Shown here one piece after another: positions 3,186 through 52,168 of a stretch of DNA of 64,000 nucleotides. Both the position numbers and the translations under genes were made by a program. Numbering within the stretch: position 1 is the stretch's first letter; each line of letters opens with the position of its first letter. This stretch comes from Clostridia bacterium (lineage in GTDB: Bacteria > Bacillota > Clostridia > Oscillospirales > Acutalibacteraceae), in contig CAAFVV010000030.1 in the NCBI GenBank assembly GCA_900766585.1, forward strand, positions 78,980-142,979. The letters are read 5' to 3'. The notes under the pieces are model-generated. The model worked only from the letters and a program-made list of their open reading frames with translations. It had not been told where the DNA came from and did not search any database.

Positions 3186-4331
3186 GTGAAGGGGTTTCCC
3201 TACCATTATTTAGACAACAGCGCCACCACCAATGTCTGCCGCGAAGCGGCGGACAAGGCGGCCTATATGATGACCGAATGCTTCGGCAACCCGTCCTCAC
3301 TCCATTCGCTCGGCTTCGCCGCCGAACGGGAGCTGTCCGCCGCCCGCCGCGCCGTCGCCGCCCTGATCGGCGCCGAGCCGGAAACCGTCACGTTTACGTC
3401 CGGCGGCACGGAGGCGAACAATCTGGCGCTGCTCGGCTGTGCCGAAGCGATGAGTCGGCGGGGGCGGCATATCGTCACGACGGCGGTGGAGCATTCCTCT
3501 GTGTCCGAGCCACTTACCGTCCTTGAAAAACAGGGGTTTACCGTTACGCGGCTCACCCCCGGTCAAAACGGACTTGTCAGTCCCGGGCAGGTCGCTGCGG
3601 TCTGCCGCCCCGATACAATACTGGTCAGCATCATGCTGGTCAACAATGAGACCGGGGCGCGCTTTCCGATCGAGGAGATCGTTCCCGTCGTGCGCCGGCT
3701 CTCCCCGTTTGCTAAATTCCATACCGATGCCGTTCAGGCAGCGGGAAAGCTCCCGATCCGTTTGGACAAGCTGGGAGTCGATCTGCTGTCACTGAGCGGT
3801 CACAAGCTCCATGCACCGAAGGGCAGCGGCGTGTTATACCGCCGTTCCGGCTGCCGCCTGATCCCGCGCCTTTACGGCGGCGGACAGGAGTACGGGCTGC
3901 GCTCCGGCACAGAGGCGGTTCCCGCCTTTGCCGCGCTCGGCGCCGCCGTCGGTGCGCTGCCCGACCCCGCTGAATTTGAAGCGGAGACAAAAGCGCTGTC
4001 CGACCGATTGATCGCCGGTCTCGGCCGTATTCCCGGTGTTTCACTGCACCGCCCGGAATCCGCCGTGCCGTATATTGTCAGTCTGTCTGTTCCCGGTCTG
4101 CGCAGCGAAACGCTGCTGCACTTTCTGGCGCAGCGTGATGTCTATGTGTCCAGCGGATCTGCCTGCTCGAAGGGCAGACGCAGTCCCGTGCTGACCGCGA
4201 TGGGAATGTCTGCCGACGAGATCGACTCAGCGCTGCGCGTCAGCCTGTCCCGCTATAACGATGAATCCGATATCGACGCCCTGCTTGAGGGACTTTCCGA
4301 GGCGACTGCCGCATTGGCGCGCCGCAAATAA
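3186..4331 (+). CDS. nifS: cysteine desulfurase (NifS/IscS family, class V aminotransferase)
   Basis: PLP-lysine motif SGHKLHAPKGSGVLY. C-terminal SGSACS active-site Cys loop. GTG start with AAGGAG RBS. Classic partner of thiI. Confidence 0.85.
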   Translation: MKGFPYHYLDNSATTNVCREAADKAAYMMTECFGNPSSLHSLGFAAERELSAARRAVAALIGAEPETVTFTSGGTEANNLALLGCAEAMSRRGRHIVTTAVEHSSVSEPLTVLEKQGFTVTRLTPGQNGLVSPGQVAAVCRPDTILVSIMLVNNETGARFPIEEIVPVVRRLSPFAKFHTDAVQAAGKLPIRLDKLGVDLLSLSGHKLHAPKGSGVLYRRSGCRLIPRLYGGGQEYGLRSGTEAVPAFAALGAAVGALPDPAEFEAETKALSDRLIAGLGRIPGVSLHRPESAVPYIVSLSVPGLRSETLLHFLAQRDVYVSSGSACSKGRRSPVLTAMGMSADEIDSALRVSLSRYNDESDIDALLEGLSEATAALARRK

Positions 4332-4353
4332 CCGACAAAGGAGGCCATCGAAC

Positions 4354-5937
4354 ATGAATGAACCCCGTGTAAATGACAAAAACGCCCGTCCCGCCGACGG
4401 CGATATGCGCGATCAGCTTGAGGTGCTTCGCCTGATGGAGCAGTATCGCAGTCAGGAAGAGCCGCAAAGTAAGCCGACGGTGCCGCTTGCTCCCCCCGAG
4501 GAGAAGCCGACTGCCGCCCCTGAAAAAAAGCCGCAGAAGAAAAAACGCTCGCTGCGGCAGATACTGACCGGCGCGCTGTATGCCGCCATTCCCGTCGCCG
4601 GGGATCCGCCGCGGGAGATCGTCCGCAAGATCGTGTTTCTGGTCGCTTTGCTGACACTGATCGGCTCCTGCGGCTACATTGTCAATGACATGGTCATTCA
4701 GCCGGGCATTTCCGCCAATACCTACGGCAGGCTCGACGATATCTATCACAACGGGGAGCCGCTTACGCCGGAGGAGGAAAACTACACCTATCCCGAGGGC
4801 ATCCGCGACGAATTCAAAAAGCTCTACTATGTCAATTCCGACATCAGCGGCTGGTTTACCTATGTCGCCACGACGTCAAATAAATGGCTGAACATCAGCT
4901 ATCCGGTCGTCCATACCGATAATAACGACACGTATCTTGACCACGATTTCTACGGCAAAAAGAGCAAAAACGGCGCGCTGTTTACCGACTACCGCTGTCT
5001 GACCGGTCCGGATGAATACAGCAAAAATACCATCATCTACGGGCACAATATGGGCAGCGGCCAGATGTTTTCGCGCCTGAATTACCTCATCAAAAACACC
5101 TACAATATGCGCTCCGCCGCCACGTTCCAATATAACACCATCTATGAAGAGCAGACATATAAGGTATTTGCCGTTATGGTCACCAACACGCGCGAACAGG
5201 AGGGGCCGATCTTCAATTATATGCGCACCGATTTCTCGTCGGATGAAGATTTTCTCCAGTTTGTCGCCGAGTGCCGCGCGCGCTCGATGTACAACTTTGC
5301 CGATGTGGATGTCAGAGCCGATGATGAGCTGGTCACGCTGTCGACCTGTGCGCCATACAGCAGGACACATGTGCATAACAGCCGCACCGTCGTGGTGGCG
5401 CGCAAGGTGCGCGAGGGCGAATCCGCCACCGTGAATACCGCCAAGATTACCGAGAATAAAAACTGCCTGTATCCGCTGAGCTACTATCAGGAGCAGAAGC
5501 TCGATCCGCACCCGTATTATACCGGCGAATATGTCATCACGCCGGAGGGCGGTCAGACAGTGACCACCGTGCCGACCGCGCCGACAACGCCGAATACACC
5601 GATCGGAAGCAGCTCTTCTGCGCAGACCGACCGGACGACTCCTGATACACCGTCGTCCTCCTCGGCGCTGACGCCCGGTACGCAGTCGACGACAGCTTCG
5701 TCGGGCGGACAGCCGTCACATACAACGAAGCTGTCGGGAACACAGCCCGCGACATCGGGCAATACCAAACCGAGCCACACGACCGCACCGCCGACGTCCC
5801 CCTCCGGCGATACAACGGCGCCGACCGCCGCGCCGACAACAAAGCCGGAGGAGACGAAACCCTCCGAGACGCAGCCGACAGAGCCGGAGACGCCGGAAAC
5901 GACCGCCGCCCCCGCTCTCGAAGCCTCCGGTGAATAA
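4354..5937 (+). CDS. class B sortase-like membrane protein with ~140-aa C-terminal Thr/Pro/Ser-rich low-complexity tail
   Basis: ATG at 4354 with AAAGGAGG RBS. Basic cytoplasmic N-terminus, then TM IVFLVALLTLIGSCGYIV. Catalytic triad elements IIYGHNMGSGQMF (His), LVTLSTCAPY (TLxTC Cys), RTVVVARKV (Arg). Tail TTVPTAPTTPNTPIGSSSSAQT.... Confidence 0.7.
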   Translation: MNEPRVNDKNARPADGDMRDQLEVLRLMEQYRSQEEPQSKPTVPLAPPEEKPTAAPEKKPQKKKRSLRQILTGALYAAIPVAGDPPREIVRKIVFLVALLTLIGSCGYIVNDMVIQPGISANTYGRLDDIYHNGEPLTPEEENYTYPEGIRDEFKKLYYVNSDISGWFTYVATTSNKWLNISYPVVHTDNNDTYLDHDFYGKKSKNGALFTDYRCLTGPDEYSKNTIIYGHNMGSGQMFSRLNYLIKNTYNMRSAATFQYNTIYEEQTYKVFAVMVTNTREQEGPIFNYMRTDFSSDEDFLQFVAECRARSMYNFADVDVRADDELVTLSTCAPYSRTHVHNSRTVVVARKVREGESATVNTAKITENKNCLYPLSYYQEQKLDPHPYYTGEYVITPEGGQTVTTVPTAPTTPNTPIGSSSSAQTDRTTPDTPSSSSALTPGTQSTTASSGGQPSHTTKLSGTQPATSGNTKPSHTTAPPTSPSGDTTAPTAAPTTKPEETKPSETQPTEPETPETTAAPALEASGE

Positions 5938-7197: not shown

Positions 7198-10100
7198 TTG
7201 CTGCGTATCCTGCATATTTCCGTCGGCGGCGTTTCGCCGGACACAGCTGCGGTATGGGAAAGGGTGTTTTTGCCCTATGGTGAATCCGTCTCCGCGTCTC
7301 TTTCCGCAACGGACGAATCCTCTTTGCGCAAGCTGCTGTGTACCGACGCCAAGGGCTGTGATCTGGTGCTGCTGACCGGCGACGCTGCCTGCTGCCGCAA
7401 AGCGGTGCTGTCGCTGACCGGACCGGACGCCGTCATCCCTCTCGCCCTGACCCGCCGCATTGCCGGCTGGATGTTCCGGCAGCCCGGAAGGCTTTGGGTC
7501 TGGCTTCCCGACGGCGCCGAAAAGCAGATAGCACTGTTATCGGAATGCGTTCTGCCGCTGCTGCCCGAAAAGCATATGATCGTGCATACCGTCGGGATCT
7601 ACGGCCTCGCTCCCGAAGTAATTCAGGAAAGGCTGGCACCTTTTCTGTCCAGGACCTCTCCGGCGTGCTGTCTGTATCGGATAGATGCCGAGTGGCGGCT
7701 TCGTCTGGTTGCCCCCTGCGGTGAGGAAAGCGGGATGGAGTGTACACTCGCCGCAATCCGCAAGCAGCTCGGGGCCTATCTCTACGGGACAGACTGCCCC
7801 GACCTCTTCGGACGCGTGCAGGAATTACTGGGACTCAGAGCGCTCACCGCCGCCGTCACCGGTCTCCCGCCTATGGCCGGCCGTAAAAGTGGCGGTATCA
7901 ATTTTATTTCTGAGGATATCCCCGTCGAGCAGCCGGCAGAGCCTGGCGCTGACGCTGGAACCGACGGGCAAAACGAACCGGATCCGACCCCGTATGCGGC
8001 ACTGCGGGCTAAAGAAACCGGAAATGCCGCACTCGGTCTCTCCCTGCGGCAGGATACTTCCGCCTCGCGGCCGACCGTGCGCCTGTCTCTGACAGACGGA
8101 AGACGCCTTTGGAACAAAACGCTGACCGGCGACGATGCCGATACACTGACAGCCGAAGCGGAAAGTGCGCTCTGGGATTTGGCGCGCCGTTATCTGGAGG
8201 CGTTTCCTCTGGTCATGGCGGGCGGCGAACCGGTCGTACTCCCCGAAAAAGCGACCGATATCCCCGTTTCTCCGCTGGAAAAAGAGCAGCCGATACTTCT
8301 CCGCCCCGTGAAACGCACCTCCGAGCGCGCTTTTCGCGTTATCCTCGTCTGTATGCTGGCGGTCGTTTTGTGTCTGTCCGCCGGATTGTTCACCTATTTC
8401 CGGTTTTTCAACCGTACGCCGATCAACGCATTCCGTGATCTGGAGGCACTGTATCGGACCAATGTTTCAGCCAATGATTCAGACGAATATCCCAAGGATA
8501 TGCTGCCGCAGTTTTATTCGCTGTACAAGGAAAATGCGGATATTGCGGGGTGGATCCGGCTGGACAACAAAACGCAGAGCTATCCCGTGATGAACGGGCT
8601 GGGATCGGTTGACTACGGTTCCAGCGATTTTGCCGGGCAGCCCTCCTCCTATGGCGTCCCCTTTTTCTTTCCCGCAACGCCGCGGGCGGATAAAAACGAC
8701 TGCCTAATTATCTATGGAAACCACATGACGGATAACACCATGTTTTCCTGTCTTTTAAACTATTTGGACAACTCCTATGCGCGTTCTCACGCCCAAATAG
8801 AAATGACCACGGTATACCGCACAGGCACATGGCAGGTATTCGCGGCACTGACAGTGGATGAAAACGAGAGCGACCTGAATTTTACCCGCACGGCATTTAC
8901 CGGCGAGGCAGACCGATTGCAGTTTGTCCGCGAGCTGACAAGCCGGTCAAAGCTGACTATCACCTCAGAAGAGGTGGAAAACGAACATGAGCTTTTGCTG
9001 CTGACCACCACGCTCTCCTCCGATCCCAAGGATACCAGGCGTGTCGTTGTTGCCTTTTACCGTATAGACGGCACCAGCTCTTCCTCCACGGTCAATGTCA
9101 CGAAAAGCGCCGAGTCACAGCCCGATAACACCGTATCGGATATCCCCTCGTCTGATGACGCTTCTTCGAATGTTTCGCCGGATGTCTCCTCCGAGGACAG
9201 CCGCCCGCCCAAGCCGGATGAGGATACGTCTGAGGACGGCGGAACGGACTTTATCGAGCCGTCTGACGATGAGGACAGCCAGCCCCAGACCACAACCTCA
9301 AAGACCGCTGTTACCACGACGTCGACCAAGGCTGTAAAGCCGACCGCCTTTCCCTCCACATCGGCGGCGGAAACAGAGTCCGGCACGGCATCCGCAACAT
9401 CTGCTTCAAATACCGACACTCCGACCAGTGCGACGCTGTCCACTACGTCCGTTTCCGGCAAGACAACGACCTCCACGACCGCTAAGCCGTCGGATACTTA
9501 TGTGCCGATTCGCGAGGGTACAATCGACGAGAGCGAATACTATCCCCTGTTCCGGCTGAAAAACAGCGCCACCGAAAAGATCTTTACGCCGACGACACGG
9601 GAGGAGCTGACCCTCGGTCTGTTTTACATAGTGAAAATGGAGATGGGCTCCGCTTCGCTGATGAAAAAATCCACTGAAGCGCAAAAGGCACAGGCGGTCG
9701 CTTCCTACACCTTTGTTTTGTATTACTGTCAGAACAGCGGCAAGCCGTATGAATTCAAGTTTCCGACGTATGACCCCAACAATGCCAACGACCGCAAGAT
9801 CTATTCCGCGGTAGCGGCTGTGGCGGGAACCAAGATGATCTATCCGGAGAAGGCGCTCAAATCCCAAGCCATCAACGCCATGTACTGCGCCTCCTCTGCC
9901 GGCGTCACCTCGAGCTGCCATATGGTCTTTACGGCGAAGCTCCCCTATCTGGTCAGCGTGAAGAGCCAGTACGATACCGATGCCTATCTGAAATCGGTAA
10001 ACGGCAGCAGCATTACCGCCGAGTTTACCGTCAAGTACAGCAACCTGTTGTCGGCGATCGGTCAGTCTTTGGATCTGGCACAGTCGGAGATCTACGCCGA

Positions 10101-10467
10101 AAAGGGTGCGGTTCCGCTGTTCGCCAAAACATGGGACGGCGGTGAGAACGGCTATGTCTATCAGACAAATCTGTATTACTACAAAAACGGTAAAAAGACC
10201 TATATCACCGGCAAACAGATCCGCAACAGTGTCAACAAGCACACCTCTGCTTCCATGCGCTCCCACGCATTTACCGTTACCGCCTATGACAGCAAGACGG
10301 ATATCATGACCATTCAGACGCGCGGACACGGACACGGGCTGGGGCTTTCGCAATACGGCGCGGTGGGTTATGCCAACGAGGCAGGATGGACATATGACCG
10401 GATTCTTGCCCACTATTATTCGATCACGGAAACCACGCCCTATCAGCTCGTTGCCCCGAAATTTTAA
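7198..10467 (+). CDS. multidomain membrane protein: degenerate CinA-like N-domain + TM + pseudo-sortase B domain (Cys lost) + Ser/Thr/Asp-rich linker + SpoIID/LytB domain
   Basis: TTG start with GGAGG RBS. TM VILVCMLAVVLCLSAGLFTYF. Sortase-like ADIAGWIRLDNKTQSYPVMNG..IIYGNHMTD..ELLLLTTTLSSDPKDTRRVVVAFYRI, i.e. TLSTC replaced by TTLSS. C-terminal SpoIID motifs EAQKAQAVASYTFVLYY and TRGHGHGLGLSQYGAVGYANEAGWTYDRILAHYY. Confidence 0.7.
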   Translation: MLRILHISVGGVSPDTAAVWERVFLPYGESVSASLSATDESSLRKLLCTDAKGCDLVLLTGDAACCRKAVLSLTGPDAVIPLALTRRIAGWMFRQPGRLWVWLPDGAEKQIALLSECVLPLLPEKHMIVHTVGIYGLAPEVIQERLAPFLSRTSPACCLYRIDAEWRLRLVAPCGEESGMECTLAAIRKQLGAYLYGTDCPDLFGRVQELLGLRALTAAVTGLPPMAGRKSGGINFISEDIPVEQPAEPGADAGTDGQNEPDPTPYAALRAKETGNAALGLSLRQDTSASRPTVRLSLTDGRRLWNKTLTGDDADTLTAEAESALWDLARRYLEAFPLVMAGGEPVVLPEKATDIPVSPLEKEQPILLRPVKRTSERAFRVILVCMLAVVLCLSAGLFTYFRFFNRTPINAFRDLEALYRTNVSANDSDEYPKDMLPQFYSLYKENADIAGWIRLDNKTQSYPVMNGLGSVDYGSSDFAGQPSSYGVPFFFPATPRADKNDCLIIYGNHMTDNTMFSCLLNYLDNSYARSHAQIEMTTVYRTGTWQVFAALTVDENESDLNFTRTAFTGEADRLQFVRELTSRSKLTITSEEVENEHELLLLTTTLSSDPKDTRRVVVAFYRIDGTSSSSTVNVTKSAESQPDNTVSDIPSSDDASSNVSPDVSSEDSRPPKPDEDTSEDGGTDFIEPSDDEDSQPQTTTSKTAVTTTSTKAVKPTAFPSTSAAETESGTASATSASNTDTPTSATLSTTSVSGKTTTSTTAKPSDTYVPIREGTIDESEYYPLFRLKNSATEKIFTPTTREELTLGLFYIVKMEMGSASLMKKSTEAQKAQAVASYTFVLYYCQNSGKPYEFKFPTYDPNNANDRKIYSAVAAVAGTKMIYPEKALKSQAINAMYCASSAGVTSSCHMVFTAKLPYLVSVKSQYDTDAYLKSVNGSSITAEFTVKYSNLLSAIGQSLDLAQSEIYAEKGAVPLFAKTWDGGENGYVYQTNLYYYKNGKKTYITGKQIRNSVNKHTSASMRSHAFTVTAYDSKTDIMTIQTRGHGHGLGLSQYGAVGYANEAGWTYDRILAHYYSITETTPYQLVAPKF

Positions 10468-45033: not shown

Positions 45034-47049
45034 TTACGCAAACAGTGCCTCGCGGTCAATATCCGCCAAAAAGACGACAGCATCGCTCAGCGTCAGATGG
45101 AACAGCGAGGTATTGCACTTGGTGTCCTTTCCCCACCCCTCAAACGTGGTGGTTCCGCCCTCGCGCAGAATGCGCAGCCACGCCCCCTCGTCACAAAGGC
45201 AGTCGTGTACCATATCCTCACGCCCGTGCCGCACCAATCCGCACAAAAGCGGGAACGAGCCGAACATGGATACCGCCGTGATCCCCCGCTCGGCGATCCA
45301 GGCAATGATGCGGTCAGCGCATGCCTCGTCAGGACAGAGCCGGAAAGCAAACGCCAGCACGTTGCCGATATAGCTTGTATGCACTGTTTTGCGGCTGTCT
45401 CTGAACAGATGGCGCTTTTTATCGTAAAACGCCGCCGTAAAGGCATCGACCAGCGGTTTTTCGTCACGGTAGGGCGCAAGCTCCAGCGCCTGCGCCATGC
45501 GGTTGGCGCAGCGCACGCCCTCGATATAGTAGGCGTTGATCGCGACATGTGCCTCATGGCAGACCTGCCCCTCGCGAATATCCACATCATAGCCGTCGCG
45601 GAAATTTTCGGGCCACTCGACTACACACCACTTATCCAGCTCGCAGAGCAGCCTGTCCCTTTCATATTGCACGCGATAATGGTTCAAAAGGCGGCAGACG
45701 CCGGGGTAATTCTGCGCGAGATAGGCACGGTCACCGGTCAGCCGGTAATGCCACAGGATCAGCGAGATCAGCATCAGCGGGTATTCGGCGATCTCCTGCA
45801 TCATGGAGCAGTCAAGGCAGGTCACCATGCCGGGATCAATAAATGTGGAGGCAAAGGCATCGTCGATCAGCTTGCGCACGATAGAATCATCGCCGGTCAG
45901 CAGCATATTGGCAAGCGCCGTATAGCACCCGTCCCCGACATAGAAGCCCTTTTCCCGCTCCATGCAGTCCTGAATGACCTCCTGCACGCCGTAATGCTGC
46001 GAGCGCACGCAAAGCTCCCAGATGCGGCGCAGCGGCTCCTCCCCGACATAGGCAGGCAGCATATGCGCGGAAAGAGAAAACGGGTAGTGGCGTGCGGACA
46101 GCTCGACGCTTTGGATCACGCAGCCCTCCGGCAGCAAAAGCTCAGCATAGCGGAAGGATTTATAGTCAAACCAGTCAAGCGTATCCGCATTTCCCGAGAG
46201 GAGCCACGGCTCCTCATATACGCAGTTGGCACGCAGGCGATAGCGCACCGTGCCGTCAGCGTTCAGCTCCTGCCCGCACCGCACGGTCACGCAGCTGCCC
46301 GCCTGTCCGATCGCGCTTACCTGCAGATAGCCGACATAGGTGCTGCCGAAATCCAAAAACAGGGTATCTCCGCGCCGCTCGGTTTTAACCGGTTTTACGG
46401 TATCAAACACCAGCGCCGCCGTCGGCTGCGGCACAACGCGGTAGTCCGTATGTGCGCGGCGGCAGGCAGGCGTCCAGCCGCTGTCGTCAAAGGACGGCGC
46501 GAAAAAATCGACCTCGGGCGCGGCAGAATCGTAGGACTCCATAAACTGCGTCGCATATCCGACGGTGCCGCACTCGGCATAGGCGGTATGGCGGTGCGTC
46601 AAAAACCGCTCGTCGCTCCCCCACACCGTTTCACCGTCCAGCACAAGGTCACAAAGCAGACCGTGGCGGTTGTCACCGCTGACCCAGACGCGGTTGATCA
46701 GCCCCTGATAAAGCGTATGTACCGCCAGTACATTTTCGCCGGTATGCAGCTGACCGGTAATATCCACAACAAGATAGCCGAGCCGATCGGGATACGCCGG
46801 TGCGGGTCCCTGAGAGACAAAGCCACCGTTGACATAGGCCTTGTAGTAGTCGTCCGCCGTAATGTACAGCAGCGCCGACTGCGGCAGGCGGTTGAGCGTA
46901 AAATGCCGCCGAAACAGAATATGGCGGTCACGATGCTCGTCGCAGGGCAGATCCACTCGCTGAAGCTGGCGGTGAAACACCTGCCGCGGCGCAAGCTCTG
47001 CAAATTCCTCGTTTGTGATCCACACGCCGGAAAAAACATGGTCTTTCAT
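45034..47049 (-). CDS. glycoside hydrolase family 78-like (alpha-L-rhamnosidase-like)
   Basis: N-domain pattern LLYITADDYYKAYVNGGFVSQGP..YLVVDITGQLHTGENVLAV resembles Bac_rhamnosid_N, followed by a six-hairpin glycosidase-like region. Start at the internal ATG with GAAGGAG RBS. Confidence 0.5.
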   Translation of the reverse strand: MKDHVFSGVWITNEEFAELAPRQVFHRQLQRVDLPCDEHRDRHILFRRHFTLNRLPQSALLYITADDYYKAYVNGGFVSQGPAPAYPDRLGYLVVDITGQLHTGENVLAVHTLYQGLINRVWVSGDNRHGLLCDLVLDGETVWGSDERFLTHRHTAYAECGTVGYATQFMESYDSAAPEVDFFAPSFDDSGWTPACRRAHTDYRVVPQPTAALVFDTVKPVKTERRGDTLFLDFGSTYVGYLQVSAIGQAGSCVTVRCGQELNADGTVRYRLRANCVYEEPWLLSGNADTLDWFDYKSFRYAELLLPEGCVIQSVELSARHYPFSLSAHMLPAYVGEEPLRRIWELCVRSQHYGVQEVIQDCMEREKGFYVGDGCYTALANMLLTGDDSIVRKLIDDAFASTFIDPGMVTCLDCSMMQEIAEYPLMLISLILWHYRLTGDRAYLAQNYPGVCRLLNHYRVQYERDRLLCELDKWCVVEWPENFRDGYDVDIREGQVCHEAHVAINAYYIEGVRCANRMAQALELAPYRDEKPLVDAFTAAFYDKKRHLFRDSRKTVHTSYIGNVLAFAFRLCPDEACADRIIAWIAERGITAVSMFGSFPLLCGLVRHGREDMVHDCLCDEGAWLRILREGGTTTFEGWGKDTKCNTSLFHLTLSDAVVFLADIDREALFA

Positions 47050-47054
47050 ACAGC

Positions 47055-47570
47055 TTATACTCCTTCTGTATACCGTCTGATCTCTTGATATGCCTCGGTC
47101 AGACGGGAAAATGAACAGCGGGCATTGGCGGGACTGGTGCTCGGCAGCAAAATGGCTGGCTGCTGCGTTTTCGGTGCGCATAGCTTTGTGTAAAGTTGAT
47201 AAGCTTTACAACCTGTGGTAAATATCGCCCGCACTGCCGTTTGGCTCAGCAGCACGTCGATCGGATTCGGCACGGGGTCGAGAATGGTGCTGTCCGCAGC
47301 CCCCGCGATGCGGCAGCTTTTCAGCACATCCCATAGCGCTATGTCATGCCGATTCAGAAAAGCGCGGCGCGCTTCCTCTGTCTCCGGTGTGCCCTCTCCG
47401 TACACTGCCGCCATCACACGCCAGAAGCGGTTTTGGGGATGGGCATAGTAAAAGCCCGCCTGTCTTGACCGCGGAGACGGCATTGTGCCGAGAATCAGCA
47501 CACGGCTTTGGGGGGTATAGACCGGCGGGAGCAGGTGGATAACGGTTTCGGCTGCTGACAATGCGCTCAC
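47055..47570 (-). CDS. uracil-DNA glycosylase superfamily protein (DNA-deoxyinosine/hypoxanthine glycosylase-like)
   Basis: RVLILGTMPSPRSRQAGFYYAHPQNRFW motif. 171 aa. GTG start. Confidence 0.6.
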   Translation of the reverse strand: MSALSAAETVIHLLPPVYTPQSRVLILGTMPSPRSRQAGFYYAHPQNRFWRVMAAVYGEGTPETEEARRAFLNRHDIALWDVLKSCRIAGAADSTILDPVPNPIDVLLSQTAVRAIFTTGCKAYQLYTKLCAPKTQQPAILLPSTSPANARCSFSRLTEAYQEIRRYTEGV

Positions 47571-47680
47571 CTCTTTTTTCAGTATAGCATACTTTATTCT
47601 TCTTCACAACCGTTTTTTCGTTTTTGGCATAGACGGTCGGACAAATGCGTATAGTGTTATCGATCAAAAAGGAAAGGTGT

Positions 47681-48580
47681 GACGCCAAAGTGAAGACACT
47701 CCCACCGGATGCCAATGATTTCGCCCGCATGATCGAGCGGTACAATCGGGAGATGCAGCAATATGTCGCCATCAACCCGCGGCCGGAGCCTGCCCCGCCT
47801 GACGGATCGCCGGGCGAACAAGCGGTTTTTGCCGAAGCGCCGGCAGAGGAGCTGCGGCAGGCGGCAGCGGGGGCAGCAGCCGCCGCCCCCGCTGCCGATC
47901 AGCCGCCGGCGGAAGATCAGGCAGAAGACCCGATTGCTCCTGCCGCAGAGACAGCTGCAGAACCGGAGGAGGCACCGGCCCCTGCCAGCGCGGACACAGC
48001 CGCGGACATACATATAGATACGGATATAGGGACGGATACGGCTTCTTTGGCTGCCGCCACTCCCTCTTCGCCGGAGGAGTCCATGCTTCCTCGCAGCCGG
48101 GAGATTCCCTATCCGTCTACCGAGGACATTGCGCCGCTGATTCAAACGCGGGACGACAGCGACAAGCCGGAAAAGCCTGCCGAGCCGTACCCGCGCAATG
48201 CCGTCGGATTCCTGATCGTACAGACTTTTTCGGCGCGCGGTGTACTGCCGGTCGAGGGAGCAACCGTTACGGTCAGCGGAACGGAAAATGACAAAACCGT
48301 ACTCTATCACACCGTTTTCAGCGACATCAGCGGCCTGTCTCCGCTGATGTCGCTGCCTGCCGTCAGCGCCCAGCTCTCGATGAAGCCGGGCGCGTATCAG
48401 CCGTATACCGTCTATACCGTGCGGGTGCAGAAGGCCGGTTATTATCCGGTAGAAAACACCAGAGTCACGATCTACGAGGGCGTCGTTGCCCGGCAGCCGG
48501 TCAATCTGGTGCCGCTTCCCGAAAACCAGCGCGAGGGAAAACCGCAGATCTTTCCCGAAAGCGGGCCGGCTGATCTATGA
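47681..48580 (+). CDS. hypothetical protein: Ala/Pro/Glu-rich low-complexity N-half, beta-rich C-terminal domain
   Basis: ORF with GTG/ATG start options after AAAGGAAAGG. No motif recognised. Immediately upstream of the SpoIID-like/PG-binding gene. Confidence 0.4.
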   Translation, partial: DAKVKTLPPDANDFARMIERYNREMQQYVAINPRPEPAPPDGSPGEQAVFAEAPAEELRQAAAGAAAAAPAADQPPAEDQAEDPIAPAAETAAEPEEAPAPASADTAADIHIDTDIGTDTASLAAATPSSPEESMLPRSREIPYPSTEDIAPLIQTRDDSDKPEKPAEPYPRNAVGFLIVQTFSARGVLPVEGATVTVSGTENDKTVLYHTVFSDISGLSPLMSLPAVSAQLSMKPGAYQPYTVYTVRVQKAGYYPVENTRVTIYEGVVARQPVNLVPLPENQREGKPQIFPESGPADL

Positions 48581-48602
48581 GCAAAAAAGGAGATGACTGT
48601 AT

Positions 48603-50009
48603 ATGCCCCTGAGCGGTTTACCGTATATTCCGGAGACCATCACGGTCCATCTGGGACCGCCGAACAGCAGCGCCCGCAATGTAACCGTCCCGTTTATCGA
48701 CTATATCAAAAACGTTGCTTCGAGTGAGATCTATCCCACCTGGCCGGAAAATGCGCTGCGCGCCAATATATACGCCCAGATTACGTTTGCCTTAAACCGC
48801 ATTTACACCGAGTGGTACCGCAGCCGCGGTTACGATTTTGATATCACCAATTCCACTGCCTATGATCAGGCGTATGTGCCAAACCGCGATATCTACGACA
48901 ATATTTCCGCCCTTGCGGATGAGCTGTTCAACACCTATGTACGCAAGCAAGGCACGGTTGAGCCGTATTTTACCCAGTACTGCAACGGCACCACTGTCAC
49001 CTGTAATGGGCTGTCGCAATGGGGCACGGTTGCGCTGGCAGAGAGCGGCGCTACGCCCTATGAGATCCTCACCAACTATTACGGCGACGATATTGATCTG
49101 GTGCGGGACGCTCCGGTGCGCCCGCTGGATCAGTCCTATCCCGGCACCCCGTTTCGCATCGGCTCAAGCGGGCGCGATGTACTGCTGCTTCAGATCCGGC
49201 TGAACCGCATTTCCGCCGACTATCCCGCCATTCCGAAAATTTTTCCTCTCGACGGCGTATTCGACGCAGAGACCGACGCCGCTGTACGGGAATTTCAGCG
49301 CATTTTCAATTTGAGCGAGGACGGCGTTGTCGGTCCGGCGACATGGTATCAGATCAACGCCATTTATACGGCGGTCAAACGGCTTGCCGAGCTTAACTCC
49401 GAGGGACTGACCTTTGACGAGCTGGGGCAGCAGTTTCCCGGCCCGCTTCGCTACGGCGATACCGGCACCCCGGTGCGCATCGTGCAATACTATCTTGCGG
49501 TGATCGGGCAATTTTACGACACCGTCAACTCCCCTGCCATCAACGGTACCTTTGATGAGGCCACCCAGGACGCCGTGCGCGCATTTCAGGCAGCCAGCGG
49601 GCTGACCGTTGACGGCATCGTCGGCGACCAGACGTGGAACGCCATCCTCGACGCCTATTACGGCATACTTGACAGCATTGACAACCTCACGCTTCCGGTC
49701 AAGCTGTTTCCCGGCACACTTTTGGTGCAGGGCTCCCGCGGCGAGTATGTCTCTGTTCTGCAGGAATACCTCTCCTATATCGCCGACACCTTTTCCGAAA
49801 TCCCCAAAGTGCCGGTCACCGGTGTGTTCGGCACCCTGACCGACCGCGCCGTCCGCGCGTTTCAGGAGCTGTTCGGTCTGACACCGGACGGTAGGGTCGG
49901 TCTGCTGACGTGGAACAGCATTGCGGGCGTGTATGACGATCTGCAAAACGGCTACCGCAAGCAGGAGGGGCAATATCCGGGTTATGCGCTCGGCGCCTCG
50001 GAAGCGTAA
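48603..50009 (+). CDS. SpoIID/LytB-family domain protein with three peptidoglycan-binding (PG_binding_1) repeats (SleC-like architecture)
   Basis: N-domain YIKNVASSEIYPTWPENALRANIYAQITFALNRI and NGLSQWGTVALAESGATPYEILTNYYG match SpoIID signature regions. Three repeats of the LQ..L...Y....DG.FG..T..AV..FQ type. Confidence 0.6.
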   Translation: MPLSGLPYIPETITVHLGPPNSSARNVTVPFIDYIKNVASSEIYPTWPENALRANIYAQITFALNRIYTEWYRSRGYDFDITNSTAYDQAYVPNRDIYDNISALADELFNTYVRKQGTVEPYFTQYCNGTTVTCNGLSQWGTVALAESGATPYEILTNYYGDDIDLVRDAPVRPLDQSYPGTPFRIGSSGRDVLLLQIRLNRISADYPAIPKIFPLDGVFDAETDAAVREFQRIFNLSEDGVVGPATWYQINAIYTAVKRLAELNSEGLTFDELGQQFPGPLRYGDTGTPVRIVQYYLAVIGQFYDTVNSPAINGTFDEATQDAVRAFQAASGLTVDGIVGDQTWNAILDAYYGILDSIDNLTLPVKLFPGTLLVQGSRGEYVSVLQEYLSYIADTFSEIPKVPVTGVFGTLTDRAVRAFQELFGLTPDGRVGLLTWNSIAGVYDDLQNGYRKQEGQYPGYALGASEA

Positions 50010-50023
50010 AGGAGGAACGGATA

Positions 50024-50557
50024 ATGTATCCGAATAACGATATTCAGCATGACCAAAAACTGTATATCCGCGAGCTGCAGTCCGCCATTCGCCGGCTGTC
50101 CCGCAGCCATGCCGCCATCCCGGCACTGAATCCCGACGGCATTTACGGCAGCGAAACCGCCCATGCGGTCTCGCTTTATCAAAAGCGGTTCGGGCTGCCG
50201 GTCACAAAGGAGGCGGATGCTGTGACATGGGAAAGCCTGTTTACGGAGCTGCGGCGGCTGGAGGCATCAGATCCGAGCACCGACCCGTTTCCGCCGGCTT
50301 TTCTGCCGCTTGCCTATGCCGACAAGGGAGCGGGCGTTGCCCAGCTCAACGAATGGCTGCACCATTTGTCCCACGCCTTTGACAATGTTCCCGCCGTACT
50401 GCCGGGCGACGAATTCGGCGCGGACACAACCCGCGCCGTCTCGCGCATGCAGCAGATTCTGCGGCTGCCGATCAACGGCATCGTCAATTTCCCGACGTGG
50501 CACGGCATTTCCGCCACGGCGGAGCAGCTGATCCGCTTCACCGGTAACGACCGGTAA
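50024..50557 (+). CDS. peptidoglycan-binding domain (PG_binding_1 x2) protein
   Basis: Two repeats: LQSAIRRLS...PDGIYGSETAHAVSLYQKRFGL and LNEWLHHLS...GDEFGADTTRAVSRMQQILRL. Confidence 0.5.
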   Translation: MYPNNDIQHDQKLYIRELQSAIRRLSRSHAAIPALNPDGIYGSETAHAVSLYQKRFGLPVTKEADAVTWESLFTELRRLEASDPSTDPFPPAFLPLAYADKGAGVAQLNEWLHHLSHAFDNVPAVLPGDEFGADTTRAVSRMQQILRLPINGIVNFPTWHGISATAEQLIRFTGNDR

Positions 50558-50636
50558 AAAAGCGCCCAAACAACCTCCGTCACGCAAAAGCAGGGCGGGC
50601 TGAACGAAATTTCCGTCAGCCCGCCCTGTTTGATTA

Positions 50637-50888
50637 TCAGGATTCATCCGGCAGAATCGTGTATAGTAGCGCCGCGTCATCCTTGAGCGCCGTTTCCCGC
50701 ACATCGGCAACACGCACACGCACCTCACGCGCGCCGAGCGTGATGGCGATCACATCGCCGACCTTCACCTCATAAGAAGCGCGCGCCGGGCTGCCGTTTA
50801 CACTCACGCGCCCGGCGTCGCAGGCCTCATTGGCGACCGTGCGCCGCTTGATCAGACGGGACACCTTTAAATATTTATCCAAACGCAT
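50637..50888 (-). CDS. RNA-binding S4 domain protein (YabO/Hsp15-like)
   Basis: MRLDKYLKVSRLIKRRTVANEACDAGRVSVNG is the S4 fold signature. 83 aa. Confidence 0.7.
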   Translation of the reverse strand: MRLDKYLKVSRLIKRRTVANEACDAGRVSVNGSPARASYEVKVGDVIAITLGAREVRVRVADVRETALKDDAALLYTILPDES

Positions 50889-50923
50889 TTGTCATCGTTC
50901 CTTTTTTACTCTCTTTTGCGACC

Positions 50924-51019
50924 TCAGTCGCCGGAGGGATCGGATTCTTTCTTTATGCCGAACAACTGCCGTAAAATACCTCTCAAAAACCGGGGACTGC
51001 GTACAACGACCACTTTCAT
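50924..51019 (-). CDS. small ORF (31 aa, MKVVVVRSPRFLRGILRQLFGIKKESDPSGD) with strong RBS. Unverified.
   Basis: AAGGAGGAG RBS 9 nt upstream of the ATG. No homolog recognised. Confidence 0.25.
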   Translation of the reverse strand: MKVVVVRSPRFLRGILRQLFGIKKESDPSGD

Positions 51020-51043
51020 AGCTGTCAGCTCCTCCTTACCGTG

Positions 51044-51196
51044 ATTTAGAGCAAGTGATGCCAAGCAGCACGAAAGCCGCCGCGACAACGATCAGTACAA
51101 ATCGGGTCGGGCAGAGCAGAGCCAGCAGCATACCGGCGCCGAACGCCGTCAACCCCGCACCGCTTTTTCCGCATTTTCCGAACATGATCCCACCGC
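51044..51196 (-). CDS. small hydrophobic ORF (~50 aa, MFGKCGKSGAGLTAFGAGMLLALLCPTRFVLIVVAAAFVLLGI). Unverified.
   Basis: Single TM-like segment. Sits between the S4-domain gene and rsgA. No RBS check done. Confidence 0.2.
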
Positions 51197-51265
51197 CTTA
51201 CCGGATTCGGTCACGGTTTCCGTGCCTGTTATCAGCCTATGCGGCAAGGCGGCGGTCGGTGCGGA

Positions 51266-52168
51266 TTATTTTTTATAGCGGTCGCAGGCAGCGATCTCCC
51301 GATAAAGCGACACATAGCTTTGATACCGCGACGGAGCGATATCGCCCCGCGCTGCAGCCTGCCGCACGGCACAGTCCTTTTCGGCGACGTGCGCGCAGCC
51401 GGCAAACCGGCATTTTCCGAGATAAGGAGAAAATTCCGGAAACAGATTTTCGATCTCGTCGGCTTCCATCCGGCCGACGCGGTCGAGGTCGATAAACGAG
51501 AAGCCGGGGGTATCTGCCAGATATCCGCCGCCCTCCATCGGGTAGAGCCGCACGGCGCGGGTCGTATGACGGCCGCGCCCCAGCTTCCGGCTGATCTCCC
51601 CCGTTTCCAGTGCCAGTTCCGGCATCAGACGGTTGAGCAGACTGGATTTCCCCACGCCGGAATTACCTGTAAAGGCACACACCTTGCCACGCAGGAAACG
51701 GCGCAGCCCGCACAGATCGGAAGAGAGCGCGGAAACGGAAAACACCGGCAGACCCGTGCTTTGATAGATCTCCGTCAGCTCCCGCGTATCGGCGAGATCT
51801 GTCTTATTCACCACCACGGCGGGAGCAATGCCGTGATAGAGCGCCAGAGCGATCATGCGGTCGATCACCGGCAGATTCGGCGACGGATCGACCGGCGAAA
51901 TCACCACAACCAGACAGTCGAGATTCGCTACCGGGGGCCGAACCAGCACGTTTTTGCGCGGTTCGACCGTTTCGATCGTTCCAATCCCCTCACTCTGCAC
52001 AGACAGTCCGACATGATCGCCGGGCGTCGGCGTGATCCCTTCGCGGCGAAATATCCCGCGCGGACGGCAGATGTACAGACCATCGGCGGTTTCTACGGTG
52101 TAGCTACCGCCGATGCCCTGCAAAACAAGCCCGTAAACGTCCACGCGCGCAGAGGCGGACTCACTCAT
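51266..52168 (-). CDS. rsgA: ribosome small subunit-dependent GTPase A (RsgA/YloQ/CpgA)
   Basis: Circularly permuted GTPase: VVNKTDL (G4) precedes GNSGVGKSSLLNRL (G1). C-terminal zinc-finger Cys cluster CRFAGCAHVAEKDC. Confidence 0.87.
   Translation of the reverse strand: MSESASARVDVYGLVLQGIGGSYTVETADGLYICRPRGIFRREGITPTPGDHVGLSVQSEGIGTIETVEPRKNVLVRPPVANLDCLVVVISPVDPSPNLPVIDRMIALALYHGIAPAVVVNKTDLADTRELTEIYQSTGLPVFSVSALSSDLCGLRRFLRGKVCAFTGNSGVGKSSLLNRLMPELALETGEISRKLGRGRHTTRAVRLYPMEGGGYLADTPGFSFIDLDRVGRMEADEIENLFPEFSPYLGKCRFAGCAHVAEKDCAVRQAAARGDIAPSRYQSYVSLYREIAACDRYKK

Follow-up and report, generated by a model that had tools for sequence, protein, structure and literature searches.

A probable operon for a SleC-type spore cortex-lytic enzyme split into separate polypeptides in uncultured gut Oscillospirales

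Known cortex-lytic enzymes and the three-gene locus

The SleC enzymes of C. difficile (CD0551, PDB 9h68) and Clostridium perfringens carry a pre-domain, an inhibitory propeptide of ~35 aa and the enzyme in one chain, which is processed by YabG and then by Csp. In C. difficile, SleC is a product of the mother cell (PMC3789822), and YabG removes the prepeptide region from preproSleC by cutting after R119 (PMC6464247). The inhibitory propeptide is removed next by Csp (PMC3567191, PMC11300598), an activation that has been worked out in pathogens. For C. perfringens, the prepeptide has been reported as necessary for the production of active enzyme (Okamura 2000, as cited in PMC3567191). The Csp–SleC pairing is established in Clostridiaceae, Lachnospiraceae and Peptostreptococcaceae (PMC7200643, PMC3567191), and the csp genes of C. 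difficile form their own operon, with a promoter different from that of sleC (PMC3789822). Csp activation of SleC is the germination paradigm in Clostridia without Bacillus-type lysins.

Three further systems are close to the locus described here. SleC2a and SleC2b, uncharacterised SleC paralogues of Clostridium botulinum Group II (PMC5083711), combine a SleC domain of the SpoIID/LytB type with 4–5 PG-binding repeats. SleB of Bacillus and some clostridia is likewise a cortex-lytic transglycosylase with a PG_binding_1 domain; it is co-transcribed with YpeB, a partner needed for stability or localisation, in what is a known Bacillus pattern of enzyme-plus-partner operon (summarised in PMC5083711), and it is stored mature, with no cleavable zymogen. 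Finally, SpoIID, the lytic transglycosylase of engulfment, shares the superfamily fold and the context of the catalytic Glu with the enzyme considered below, but has an N-terminal membrane anchor, no PG-binding repeats, and SpoIIP/SpoIIM as partners during engulfment.

The cassette g1-g2-g3, found in a 64-kb window (the whole stretch of DNA that was analysed), is a SleC-type system in split form, the enzyme family itself being already known. This assignment follows from the match of g2 to SleC and the presence of the SleC prepeptide domain in g1. In the likely interpretation, the three genes form an operon that supplies a SleC-type spore cortex-lytic enzyme, its zymogen split into separate polypeptides, with g1 acting in trans. 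No description of such a three-gene split arrangement was found in the literature searched.

Architecture of the locus

The features of the locus, all on the forward (+) strand, are the following.

47627..47655, +: putative mother-cell-type promoter, GCATAGA (−35-like, "ATA" type), 14-nt spacer, CGTATAGT (−10-like, "CATA" type)
47670..47677, +: ribosome-binding site of g1, AGGAAAGG, read from the sequence
47690..48580, +: g1, 296 aa from GTG 47690, stand-alone SleC prepeptide-domain homologue that also has a disordered linker and an additional helix at the N-terminus
47711..47773, +: N-terminal amphipathic helix of g1, aa 8–28 (AF2 helix 8–28; alignment)
47774..48184, +: disordered linker of g1, aa 29–165, Ala/Pro/Glu-rich, pLDDT about 42–63
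48200..48508, +: β-sandwich domain of g1, aa 171–273, homologue of the SleC prepeptide (C. difficile SleC residues 1–116)
48509..48577, +: C-terminal tail of g1, PLPE...QIF...GPADL, with a short strand QIF at 286–288 (AF2)
48603..50009, +: g2, 468 aa, SleC-type lytic transglycosylase with three PG_binding_1 repeats
48603..49127, +: catalytic domain of g2 with the SpoIID/SleC fold, aa 1–175, aligned to 9h68 217–~385 (Pfam SpoIID, 26.7 bits)
49149..49922, +: three PG_binding_1 repeats of g2, ~aa 183–252, 281–348 and 371–440 (Pfam, three stretches, E=2.3e-48)
50024..50557, +: g3, 177 aa, two PG_binding_1 domains, aa ~15–72 and ~96–165 (Pfam E=2e-21)

The three genes are co-directional, and the ORF calls give intergenic gaps of exactly 22 and 14 nt, as in the original prediction; the Shine–Dalgarno sequences AAGGAGA and AGGAGG lie ahead of g2 and g3. 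The locus had been predicted to begin at 47681, where there is no start codon. The likely start of g1 is instead GTG 47690, as judged from AGGAAAGG 5′ of it and from agreement with the N-termini of the homologues, while public gene calls (306–312 aa) use ATG 47645, an alternative start (ORF 47645/47690..48580) that falls within the putative promoter. The latter lies ~15 nt 5′ of the ribosome-binding site, the GAAAGGTGTGA context of which is common to many homologous loci. The ATA/CATA promoter type has been described for mother-cell sigma factors (PMC3789822). The bipartite pattern, as defined in part post hoc, occurs in 22 of the 64 g1 upstream regions vs 3.7% of 860 control upstreams, and an unbiased Gibbs search upstream of g1 yields ttGC[AG]TAT[AG] with an information content of 6.8 bits, compared with at most 4.9 in shuffles. 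Strict sigmaK and sigmaE consensus patterns show no enrichment upstream of the g1 homologues. The motif is thus only suggestive of a mother-cell-type promoter.

Residues 7–265 of g2 align with residues 217–477 of the C. difficile SleC zymogen 9h68 (E=4.9e-72, 246 bits), with ~50% identity over 260 aa that span the catalytic and PG-binding domains, and the motifs NVASSEIY.TWPE and QWG...IL..YYG are identical in the two proteins. The predicted catalytic residue Glu42 (codon 48726–48728), which is located within NVASSEIYPTWPE and which we take to be the equivalent of the SpoIID catalytic Glu, is kept together with the residues of the signature motifs, such as the C-terminal signature GLSQWG...IL..YYG of the catalytic domain, in at least 97% of 78 homologues. 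The PG-binding repeats are matched in the PDB at 185–252, 282–348 and 371–437, the first of them corresponding to the single PG-binding domain of SleC. These results bear out the earlier description of a 468-aa protein with a SpoIID-type domain, both SpoIID signature blocks, three PG-binding repeats and no TM anchor (the highest 19-residue hydropathy window of g2 is 0.78), and its remark that the architecture is reminiscent of clostridial cortex-lytic enzymes proved to be the right lead.

The g2 chain starts ~8 residues before the conserved IPE.I.VHLG block, that is, within a few residues of the expected pro-SleC cut. The canonical propeptide block IP.HTLYG.YPPKI.E..KP...G..VL (alignment A3) is absent from g2 and is not aligned to the g1 tail by hhalign, and the prepeptide domain is likewise absent from the g2 chain, being encoded separately by the upstream g1. 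The g2 protein is accordingly a mature SleC-type enzyme without pre- or propeptide. It differs from SleC also in having three PG-binding repeats rather than one, with the third gene bringing two more. The job of g2 is probably the same as that of SleC, i.e., cortex lysis at germination. Genes of the g2 type are currently mostly called "peptidoglycan-binding protein".

The g1 protein carries the SleC prepeptide β-sandwich at its C-terminus. This domain, the counterpart of exactly the part that YabG takes off C. difficile preproSleC (PMC6464247), matches 9h68 residues 57–173 (native 1–116) with E=8.5e-6 in a single-sequence phmmer search and with E=1.9e-17 by profile, and hhalign against 30 canonical SleC N-termini gives 99.6% (E=1.7e-23). 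In the AF2 model, the fold of the last ~125 aa is predicted with confidence (pLDDT >90), and the best four Foldseek matches of the model are chains A–D of 9h68 (E=3e-10, rmsd 2.5 Å), the next match being four orders of magnitude behind. The original prediction had described g1 as an uncharacterised, low-complexity Ala/Pro/Glu-rich protein; the composition is correct for the linker (Ala 27%, Pro 17%, Glu 12%), but the C-terminal part is folded and carries the SleC prepeptide domain.

In SleC the pre-domain is part of the enzyme chain; here it has a gene to itself and comes with an added helix at the N-terminus, a disordered linker and a conserved tail at the C-terminus. The amphipathic helix, which canonical SleC lacks, bears the family motif [FL]xxhhE+YxxE[LM] (DFARMIERYNREMQQY), found with a strict regular expression in 43 of the 79 g1 homologues; of 4805 ORFs, none from another family has it. 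The linker varies widely in length between species. Within it lies SREIPYP, a short motif related to [YF]PxP[DN] of other clades; the short motifs SREIPYP and DSRYPEP, with an Arg beside an aromatic-Pro pair, are conserved just N-terminal to the folded domain. The tail ends with Leu in nearly all homologues, with one further residue after it in a few, and L140 and P119 are invariant in alignment A1 of g1. The tail could not be aligned by hhalign to the canonical SleC propeptide, and an inhibitory segment within g1 is a conjecture.

The third protein, g3, has the two PG-binding repeats that had been predicted and no catalytic domain, and is 35–39% identical to the PG-binding domain of C. difficile SleC. 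No TM segments or signal peptides are found in g1, g2 or g3 (highest Kyte–Doolittle 19-residue window, 1.19). The absence of a secretion signal had been named as a ground for refutation, which is invalid, as C. difficile SleC, so far as its N-terminus could be seen, starts directly with the β-sandwich, with no signal-like extension, and is a mother-cell product (PMC3789822). The cassette and SleC are alike both in the homologous prepeptide β-sandwich and in the lack of an export signal.

The same modules occur fused in SleC2a/b and in a relative, P0013, which are single polypeptides of about 680–790 aa, while in the window they are distributed over ORFs of 296, 468 and 177 aa. P0013 joins the pre-domain, the catalytic domain and ~four PG-binding repeats in a single chain, which matches 9h68 at residues 67–477. 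In its AF2 model, the part of the chain equivalent to the g1/g2 gene boundary lies in a linker of pLDDT <50. The model departs from the domain arrangement seen in the crystal (rmsd 21.7 Å over 410 columns, pTM 0.37), and it is therefore silent on a conserved interface between pre-domain and enzyme.

The order g1-g2-g3 is preserved in 77–78 of 80 GTDB species-level loci (g1 in 77, g3 in 78), every missing g1 or g3 being at a contig end. The carriers belong to the Acutalibacteraceae, Ruminococcaceae and Oscillospiraceae, and all are uncultured MAGs. The median g1-g2 gap is ~13 nt. Among the 80 loci where g3 is called, most have a 4-nt overlap at the g2-g3 junction, g3 being translationally coupled to g2 in most loci. 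The dN/dS values are 0.01–0.07 for g2, 0.05–0.23 for g1, and 0.03–0.13 for g3 in 9 of 10 pairs. All three genes are thus tightly linked, keep their order and are under purifying selection. The stand-alone g1-domain family comprises 2285 representatives at the 50% identity level (more than 1000 at E≤1e-10), of which the best 150 are all stand-alone, with the domain at the C-terminal end in nearly all. Four of four spot-checked variants lie directly 5′ of a g2-like gene, and in the clusters checked the g1-type genes have no source name. In related loci, the sporulation genes cotJA/B/C, spoIIID and SipL stand beside the cassette.

Control of the enzyme and alternative explanations

The split arrangement implies a control other than that of the textbook cleavage-activated zymogen: g2 has no removable propeptide and therefore cannot be activated in the textbook way, by a Csp cut at the propeptide–enzyme junction. 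In the mechanism that we envisage, the three proteins would be made in the mother cell during sporulation and then laid down at the cortex/coat boundary. The g1 domain would bind g2 non-covalently, as the in-trans counterpart of the in-cis prepeptide of SleC, acting as folding chaperone and/or inhibitor, while the helix and linker may serve in targeting or signal reception. At germination, g1 would be released or degraded and g2 thereby freed; tethered to the cortex through its PG-binding repeats and also through g3, which may anchor or tune it, g2 would then cleave the cortex glycan strands. In its full form, the proposal is that in a large uncultured gut Oscillospirales clade the covalent, protease-cleaved SleC zymogen has been replaced by a non-covalent three-component lysin, with g1 as a trans inhibitor/chaperone that takes in the germination signal through its N-terminal helix and linear motifs, with activation by a Csp-independent release, and with g3 setting the site on the cortex. 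We put this forward only tentatively.

An alternative that we also consider possible is a logic like that of SleB/YpeB, where g1 is a folding, stabilising or localising partner only, and g2 lies mature in the dormant spore, silenced by the physical condition of the spore or its cortex, with no bound inhibitor and with no protease taking part in activation. The missing propeptide of g2 and the absence of detectable homology between the g1 tail and the inhibitory propeptide are consistent with this, as are the SleB–YpeB precedent (PMC5083711), the reported requirement of the C. perfringens prepeptide for active enzyme (Okamura 2000, as cited in PMC3567191) and the lack of a subtilase gene within ±6 kb of any cassette. 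Such a scheme, however, leaves unexplained the conserved N-terminal helix of g1 and its strictly conserved C-terminal tail with the conserved terminal Leu. The proteins themselves are not those of Bacillus: the SleB catalytic fold is unrelated to g2, with the SleB model TIGR02869 (97.8 vs 236.5 bits) matching only the PG-binding part, at positions 7–68 of 201, and YpeB, with its PepSY domains and membrane anchor, is unrelated to g1.

It could also be that the system is still Csp-dependent, with a Csp- or YabG-type protease encoded elsewhere degrading or clipping g1 at germination or during spore maturation, i.e., the canonical cascade acting on a two-chain substrate. In its favour are the established Csp–SleC pairing of Clostridiaceae, Lachnospiraceae and Peptostreptococcaceae (PMC7200643, PMC3567191) and the Arg in the motifs SREIPYP and DSRYPEP before the folded domain, as YabG cuts after Arg (PMC6464247). 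Subtilase-motif ORFs are absent within ±6 kb of about 85 cassettes and from the 64-kb window; this missing linkage proves nothing, given that the csp operon of C. difficile is also separate from sleC (PMC3789822). Against Csp-dependence there are, besides the 0 subtilase ORFs, the absence of the canonical propeptide/enzyme cut site and the fact that Csp in Oscillospirales is not described in PMC7200643 or PMC3567191, and that none of the papers listed ties SleC to Acutalibacteraceae, Ruminococcaceae or Oscillospiraceae. We regard this explanation as rather doubtful.

The original prediction saw here a second SpoIID-family locus and a diversification of SpoIID-type enzymes, which is too coarse. 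A diversified SpoIID-type enzyme that remodels peptidoglycan during engulfment or in vegetative or mother cells, with no germination role, would account for the Pfam SpoIID match of g2 (PF08486, aa 28–93, 26.7 bits vs a cut-off of 23) and for a second SpoIID-like protein within the window. The Pfam match appears in the precomputed domain lists of only a minority of 120 listed g2 homologues, and g2 falls below the cut-offs of the SpoIID equivalog TIGR02870 (36 vs 234.75 bits) and of SpoIID_LytB, TIGR02669 (41.1 vs 83.3 bits). SpoIID structures in the PDB match g2 only at E about 0.3, as compared to the ~50% identity with SleC, and g2 has no TM anchor and a partner gene that encodes the SleC prepeptide domain. 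We consider this reading improbable. As for the second protein, the predicted "chimera" at 7198..10467, the GHGHGLGLSQYG motif is indeed present, but the Pfam SpoIID score of 19.2 is below the cut-off of 23.

A broken gene, whether through frameshift or decay of sleC in a lineage that is giving up sporulation, or through misassembly, is hardly credible. Interrupted sleC genes are found in other lineages, but here the three-ORF layout, ribosome-binding sites and spacing are kept in 77–78 of 80 species, and the dN/dS of each of the three genes stays well under 1; the g1 family counts more than 1000 representatives (50% identity level, E≤1e-10), and g1 has gained conserved features of its own. 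Decay as the cause of the split is contradicted by the conserved layout and spacing and by the dN/dS of 0.01–0.23. A prophage or endolysin module is equally remote, for although the PG-binding repeats match many PHROG endolysin families and two PHROGs of no assigned function match g1 and g2, these two correspond to the two parts of an interrupted sleC. The cassette has no phage genes next to it, and its housekeeping flanks (UDG, rhamnosidase, S4-domain protein, rsgA, prkC) differ between species while the cassette is constant.

Implications for germination in commensal spore-formers

At the least, the g1-type genes can now be given a name, and the g2-type genes the correct one. A very large group of gut commensals not yet in culture has the enzyme family of the germination paradigm, in a form closed to the textbook cut. 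Should the pre-domain act in trans, the cassette would be a natural experiment that separates the roles of the SleC prepeptide as chaperone, inhibitor and targeting element. If the Csp-independent release of g1 is true, clostridial germination would have, at its key committed step, a new activation logic, found in hundreds of commensal species. The results suggest that germination is controlled differently in commensal spore-formers, which bears on their transmission, on the culturing of "unculturable" taxa and on live biotherapeutics.

The enzyme and its gene layout

The three co-directional genes of the cassette and the ribosome-binding site of g1 are located in the window as follows.

Genes of the cassette
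47645/47690-48580, + strand: g1, open reading frame (ORF; ATG 47645 or GTG 47690)
47670-77, + strand: ribosome-binding site of g1, AGGAAAGG, preceding GTG 47690
48603-50009, + strand: g2, ORF, 468 aa
50024-50557, + strand: g3, ORF, 177 aa

The g1-g2 and g2-g3 gaps are 22 and 14 nt, respectively, each with a Shine-Dalgarno sequence, and a hydrophobic segment fit for a signal peptide or a membrane anchor is absent in g1, g2, and g3. The ORFs, the gaps, the Pfam domains discussed below, and the missing hydrophobic segments therefore confirm the three-gene observation of the original prediction, including the lack of a transmembrane anchor. Its start coordinate, 47681, is no start codon; g1 probably starts instead at GTG 47690 after the ribosome-binding site, in agreement with the N-termini of the homologues (MK.LPPDANDF...), while the extension from the upstream ATG 47645 is restricted to very close relatives.

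In Pfam, g2 has three PG_binding_1 repeats and a SpoIID domain that is barely over the cut-off (26.7 vs 23 bits). A search of all PDB sequences aligns g2 residues 7-265 with residues 217-477 of the Clostridioides difficile SleC zymogen (crystal structure, PDB 9h68) with E=4.9e-72 and ca. 50% identity. The alignment takes in the catalytic domain together with the first PG-binding domain; SpoIID structures reach an E of only about 0.3. g2 is also far under the cut-offs of the NCBIfam SpoIID equivalog and SpoIID/LytB models. The motif NVASSEIYPTWPE, with the predicted catalytic Glu42, is the same in SleC, and its conserved residues, E42 included, are retained by 97% or more of 78 homologues. Taken together, the SleC match, the weak SpoIID scores, and the shared motif identify g2, as judged from its sequence, as a SleC-family cortex lytic transglycosylase and not as a SpoIID orthologue. 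The SpoIID-like domain and the three repeats that had been predicted are thus present, but the assignment to the SpoIID family is too coarse.

SleC and its processing by YabG and Csp are already known, with a propeptide of ca. 35 aa in the C. perfringens work. In C. difficile, preproSleC is cleaved by YabG after R119 (PMC6464247), and the inhibitory propeptide is then taken off by Csp (PMC3567191, PMC11300598). The 9h68 chain bears a 57-residue tag, so that residue 1 of g2 corresponds to about residue 154 in the native numbering. Given this position, the YabG cut, and the propeptide length, g2 begins at most a few residues from the expected mature SleC N-terminus and has neither prepeptide nor propeptide. 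All g2 homologues have a common start, M..(E/T/L)P(Y/F)IP..I.VHLG. Multi-repeat SleC paralogues are already known from C. botulinum (SleC2a/b, PMC5083711).

Among about 25 further ORFs of the window, Pfam reveals no sporulation gene besides the SpoIID-like chimera (1089 aa, 7198-10467, + strand), which as a whole has no Pfam match. Its C-terminal ca. 355 aa carry a sub-threshold SpoIID match (19.2 vs 23 bits) and the motif GHGHGLGLSQYG, a weak sortase-like match (23 vs 26.6 bits) falls in the middle, and a weak CinA_KH match at the N-terminus, the pieces being separated by a Ser/Thr/Pro-rich low-complexity stretch. The neighboring gene at 4261-5937 also has a sortase domain.

The SleC prepeptide domain of g1 and the fission point

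g1, which was originally described as a low-complexity protein, has no significant match in Pfam. Its final ca. 125 residues align with residues 61-173 of 9h68 (E=8.5e-6), a 45-sequence profile of this C-terminal region matches residues 57-173 (native SleC 1-116) with E=1.9e-17, and hhalign of the g1 domain against 30 canonical SleC N-termini gives a probability of 99.6% (E=1.7e-23). The AF2 model of g1 is composed of the following parts.

AF2 model of g1
aa 8-28: helix
aa 29-165: disordered stretch
aa 171-273: beta-sandwich, pLDDT >90
aa 286-288: short tail strand

With this model, the best Foldseek matches are the four 9h68 chains (E=3e-10, rmsd 2.5 Å), the runner-up being weaker by four orders of magnitude. 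The low-complexity description must thus be revised, as the profile, hhalign, AF2, and Foldseek results agree on a folded C-terminal domain that is the SleC prepeptide, i.e., the portion cut away by YabG in C. difficile.

Compared to canonical SleC, g1 adds an N-terminal helix, a linker, and a conserved tail. In a scan of 4805 ORFs, the helix motif [FL]xxhhE+YxxE[LM] is confined to g1 homologues. The linker varies greatly in length. Nearly all homologues have a Leu at the end of the conserved tail, in a few with one further residue behind it. We have also considered the tail as a part of the SleC propeptide, on account of a by-eye match (IFPE vs IIPD/IFDI). However, the hhalign alignment ends before the tail, and this homology is a conjecture.

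A fused relative, P0013 (681 aa), unites pre-domain and catalytic domain with about four PG-binding repeats in one chain that matches 9h68 67-477; its gene adjoins spoIIID. In its AF2 model, residues 119-142, equivalent to the g1/g2 gene boundary, have pLDDT <50, and the fission point therefore lies within a flexible linker, which is the one bearing the Csp site in canonical SleC. This model, meant as a test of a conserved interface between pre-domain and enzyme, recovers all domains, with a pTM of 0.37 and a global rmsd of 21.7 Å relative to 9h68. It does not reproduce the domain arrangement of the crystal and so does not bear on such an interface.

g3 has two PG_binding_1 repeats in Pfam. 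Compared with the repeats of P0013 and P0015, it is no closer to the terminal ones than to the others (25-31% identity), and it is closest to the single PG-binding domain of C. difficile SleC (35-39%). By these identities, an origin of g3 by fission from the end of an ancestor with five repeats is neither supported nor excluded.

Conservation of the split and related loci

Related loci were sought in one genome per GTDB species, and 511 were found. Of the best 80 of these, 77 have g1 and 78 have g3, every missing g1 or g3 falls at a contig end, and the order is always g1-g2-g3 on a single strand. Most loci have g1 and g2 9-24 nt apart, and in most g2 and g3 overlap by 4 nt; the flanking genes vary from species to species. 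Over ten species pairs, dN/dS ranges from 0.01 to 0.07 for g2 and from 0.05 to 0.23 for g1. The values of g3 lie at 0.03-0.13 in nine of the pairs, the tenth being almost without synonymous divergence. The split into separate genes is thus conserved and selected. The cassette is carried by uncultured MAGs from the gut with the labels Acutalibacteraceae, Ruminococcaceae, Oscillospiraceae or 'Clostridia'; the one closest to the window is a Hadza-gut MAG (97% aa identity).

A 7-sequence profile of the g1 domain matched 2285 cluster representatives, 1093 of them with E<=1e-10. Stand-alone proteins make up all of the best 150, with the domain C-terminal in nearly all. Four g1 variants were spot-checked, one without the N-terminal extension and one with two tandem domains, and all four have a g2-like gene directly downstream. 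Of two architectural variants of g1, P0155 (L091:150-2451) has two tandem prepeptide-type beta-sandwich domains, and P0219 (L089:3080-5870) has the domain at its N-terminus, with a long acidic low-complexity tail behind it; a g2-like gene directly follows either one. In L089, the opposite strand carries a SipL-like gene 1.4 kb upstream of the cassette. The goat-gut MAG RGIG2955 (JAFSAC01) has two g1-g2-g3 cassettes on separate contigs (L015, L078), which shows that one genome can hold the cassette in duplicate. In a 75%-identical relative (L004:10304-11104), the cassette is followed by a gene, missing from the window, for a 266-aa Cys-rich protein (many CxxC/CC) that has no Pfam match and may be of the spore-coat type.

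Outside the window, many Lachnospiraceae sleC genes were seen, among canonical SleC sequences, to be broken at two recurrent positions. In a Lachnospiraceae MAG (L099:10001-13911; GCA_944376125.1, CALWBQ010000039.1; also L100), the break at ...QCPDWMT|QWGS... holds a ca. 2.6-kb insert. It encodes a large serine recombinase of 511 aa (Resolvase, Recombinase, and Zn_ribbon_recom domains), whose gene directly abuts the 3' sleC half, and contains a further ORF of 60 aa. Sporulation intervening elements of the sigK-skin/SpoIVCA type are built in this way. The further cluster representatives P0357, P0338, P0346, P0360, P0382, and P0397 are broken at the same position, and PHROGs 28785 and 23452 (unknown function) are two halves of interrupted sleC. 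The second break, ...FTLNRVYTEW|YRNQGY... (L092/L093:6001-12687; ENA ERZ14231430 NODE_4, 262 kb), holds a 5.85-kb insert that codes for a DUF5722 protein, a LysR regulator, and a MatE transporter and also contains an ORF of 353 aa with no Pfam match. Its 5' fragment (P0341, 228 aa) occurs on >650 contigs, and this sleC could be a pseudogene or contain an intervening element without a recognisable recombinase.

Expression and proposed mode of action

Two sequence elements lie upstream of g1.

Upstream elements
47627-47655, upstream of g1: GCATAGA-N14-CGTATAGT, putative bipartite ATA/CATA-type motif
47569-47596, + strand, g1/UDG intergenic: perfect match (N17) to the strict sigmaK pattern AC-N16-17-CATAnnnTA

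A post-hoc pattern of the ATA/CATA-type motif occurs in 22 of 64 g1 upstream regions, compared with 3.7% of controls. Unbiased Gibbs sampling yields ttGC[AG]TAT[AG]; a first run gave only the T-run of the upstream gene's terminator. The strict sigmaK site was rejected as a conserved promoter, being found at 2/73 loci with no excess over the reverse strand. Outside the window it is kept in the nearest relative (L008) alone and is thus likely to be a chance match or a lineage-specific feature. A strict sigmaE regex shows no enrichment upstream of g1 loci, and Rfam gives only chance matches and one tRNA for 46500-51500 and four related loci.

In 14 loci (L034, L037, L043, L048, L051, L059, L061, L063, L066, L067, L076, L077, L080, L087), a conserved non-coding block precedes the g1 start by ca. 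100-250 nt. It contains, on the opposite strand, a near-consensus sigma-70 promoter, TTGACATTT-N17-TATATTGT, running into conserved ..GATGCATCTAAGCAAGAC..GCCAAACAGCGCCGCAGTC..CCCTTTGCGGAGGGCG.., and Rfam gives no match at its gathering score for four of the loci. The block may belong to the divergent gene, as a leader or small RNA not described so far.

The three proteins would be synthesised in the mother cell. In the alignments, SleC also has no N-terminal signal-like extension, and it is sigmaK-dependent in C. difficile (PMC3789822). The ATA/CATA-type motif and the cassette neighbors, which in other species include sporulation genes, hint in the same direction. Since SleC has prepeptide and enzyme on a single chain, non-covalent binding of the g1 domain to g2 is the simplest model. 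g1 would then act as chaperone and/or inhibitor of g2, and its release or destruction would be needed at germination. Alternatively, the pair could follow a SleB/YpeB-like scheme without inhibition, or a Csp- or YabG-type protease could act on g1; a search near the cassettes found no subtilase/Csp-like gene in the flanks of any of them. In the model of non-covalent binding, g3 and the extra PG-binding repeats would keep the enzyme on the cortex.

Where the sources name them, g2-type proteins are a 'peptidoglycan-binding protein' or, in one case, a 'spore cortex-lytic protein', and the g1-type proteins checked are nameless. Among the papers listed by a full-text search, none connects Ruminococcaceae, Oscillospiraceae or Acutalibacteraceae with SleC or with cortex-lytic enzymes. 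The cassette has neither a prepeptide in cis nor a cleavable propeptide and is thus not a canonical SleC member; we file it in the SleC family at the domain level, as a system that would work like SleC.
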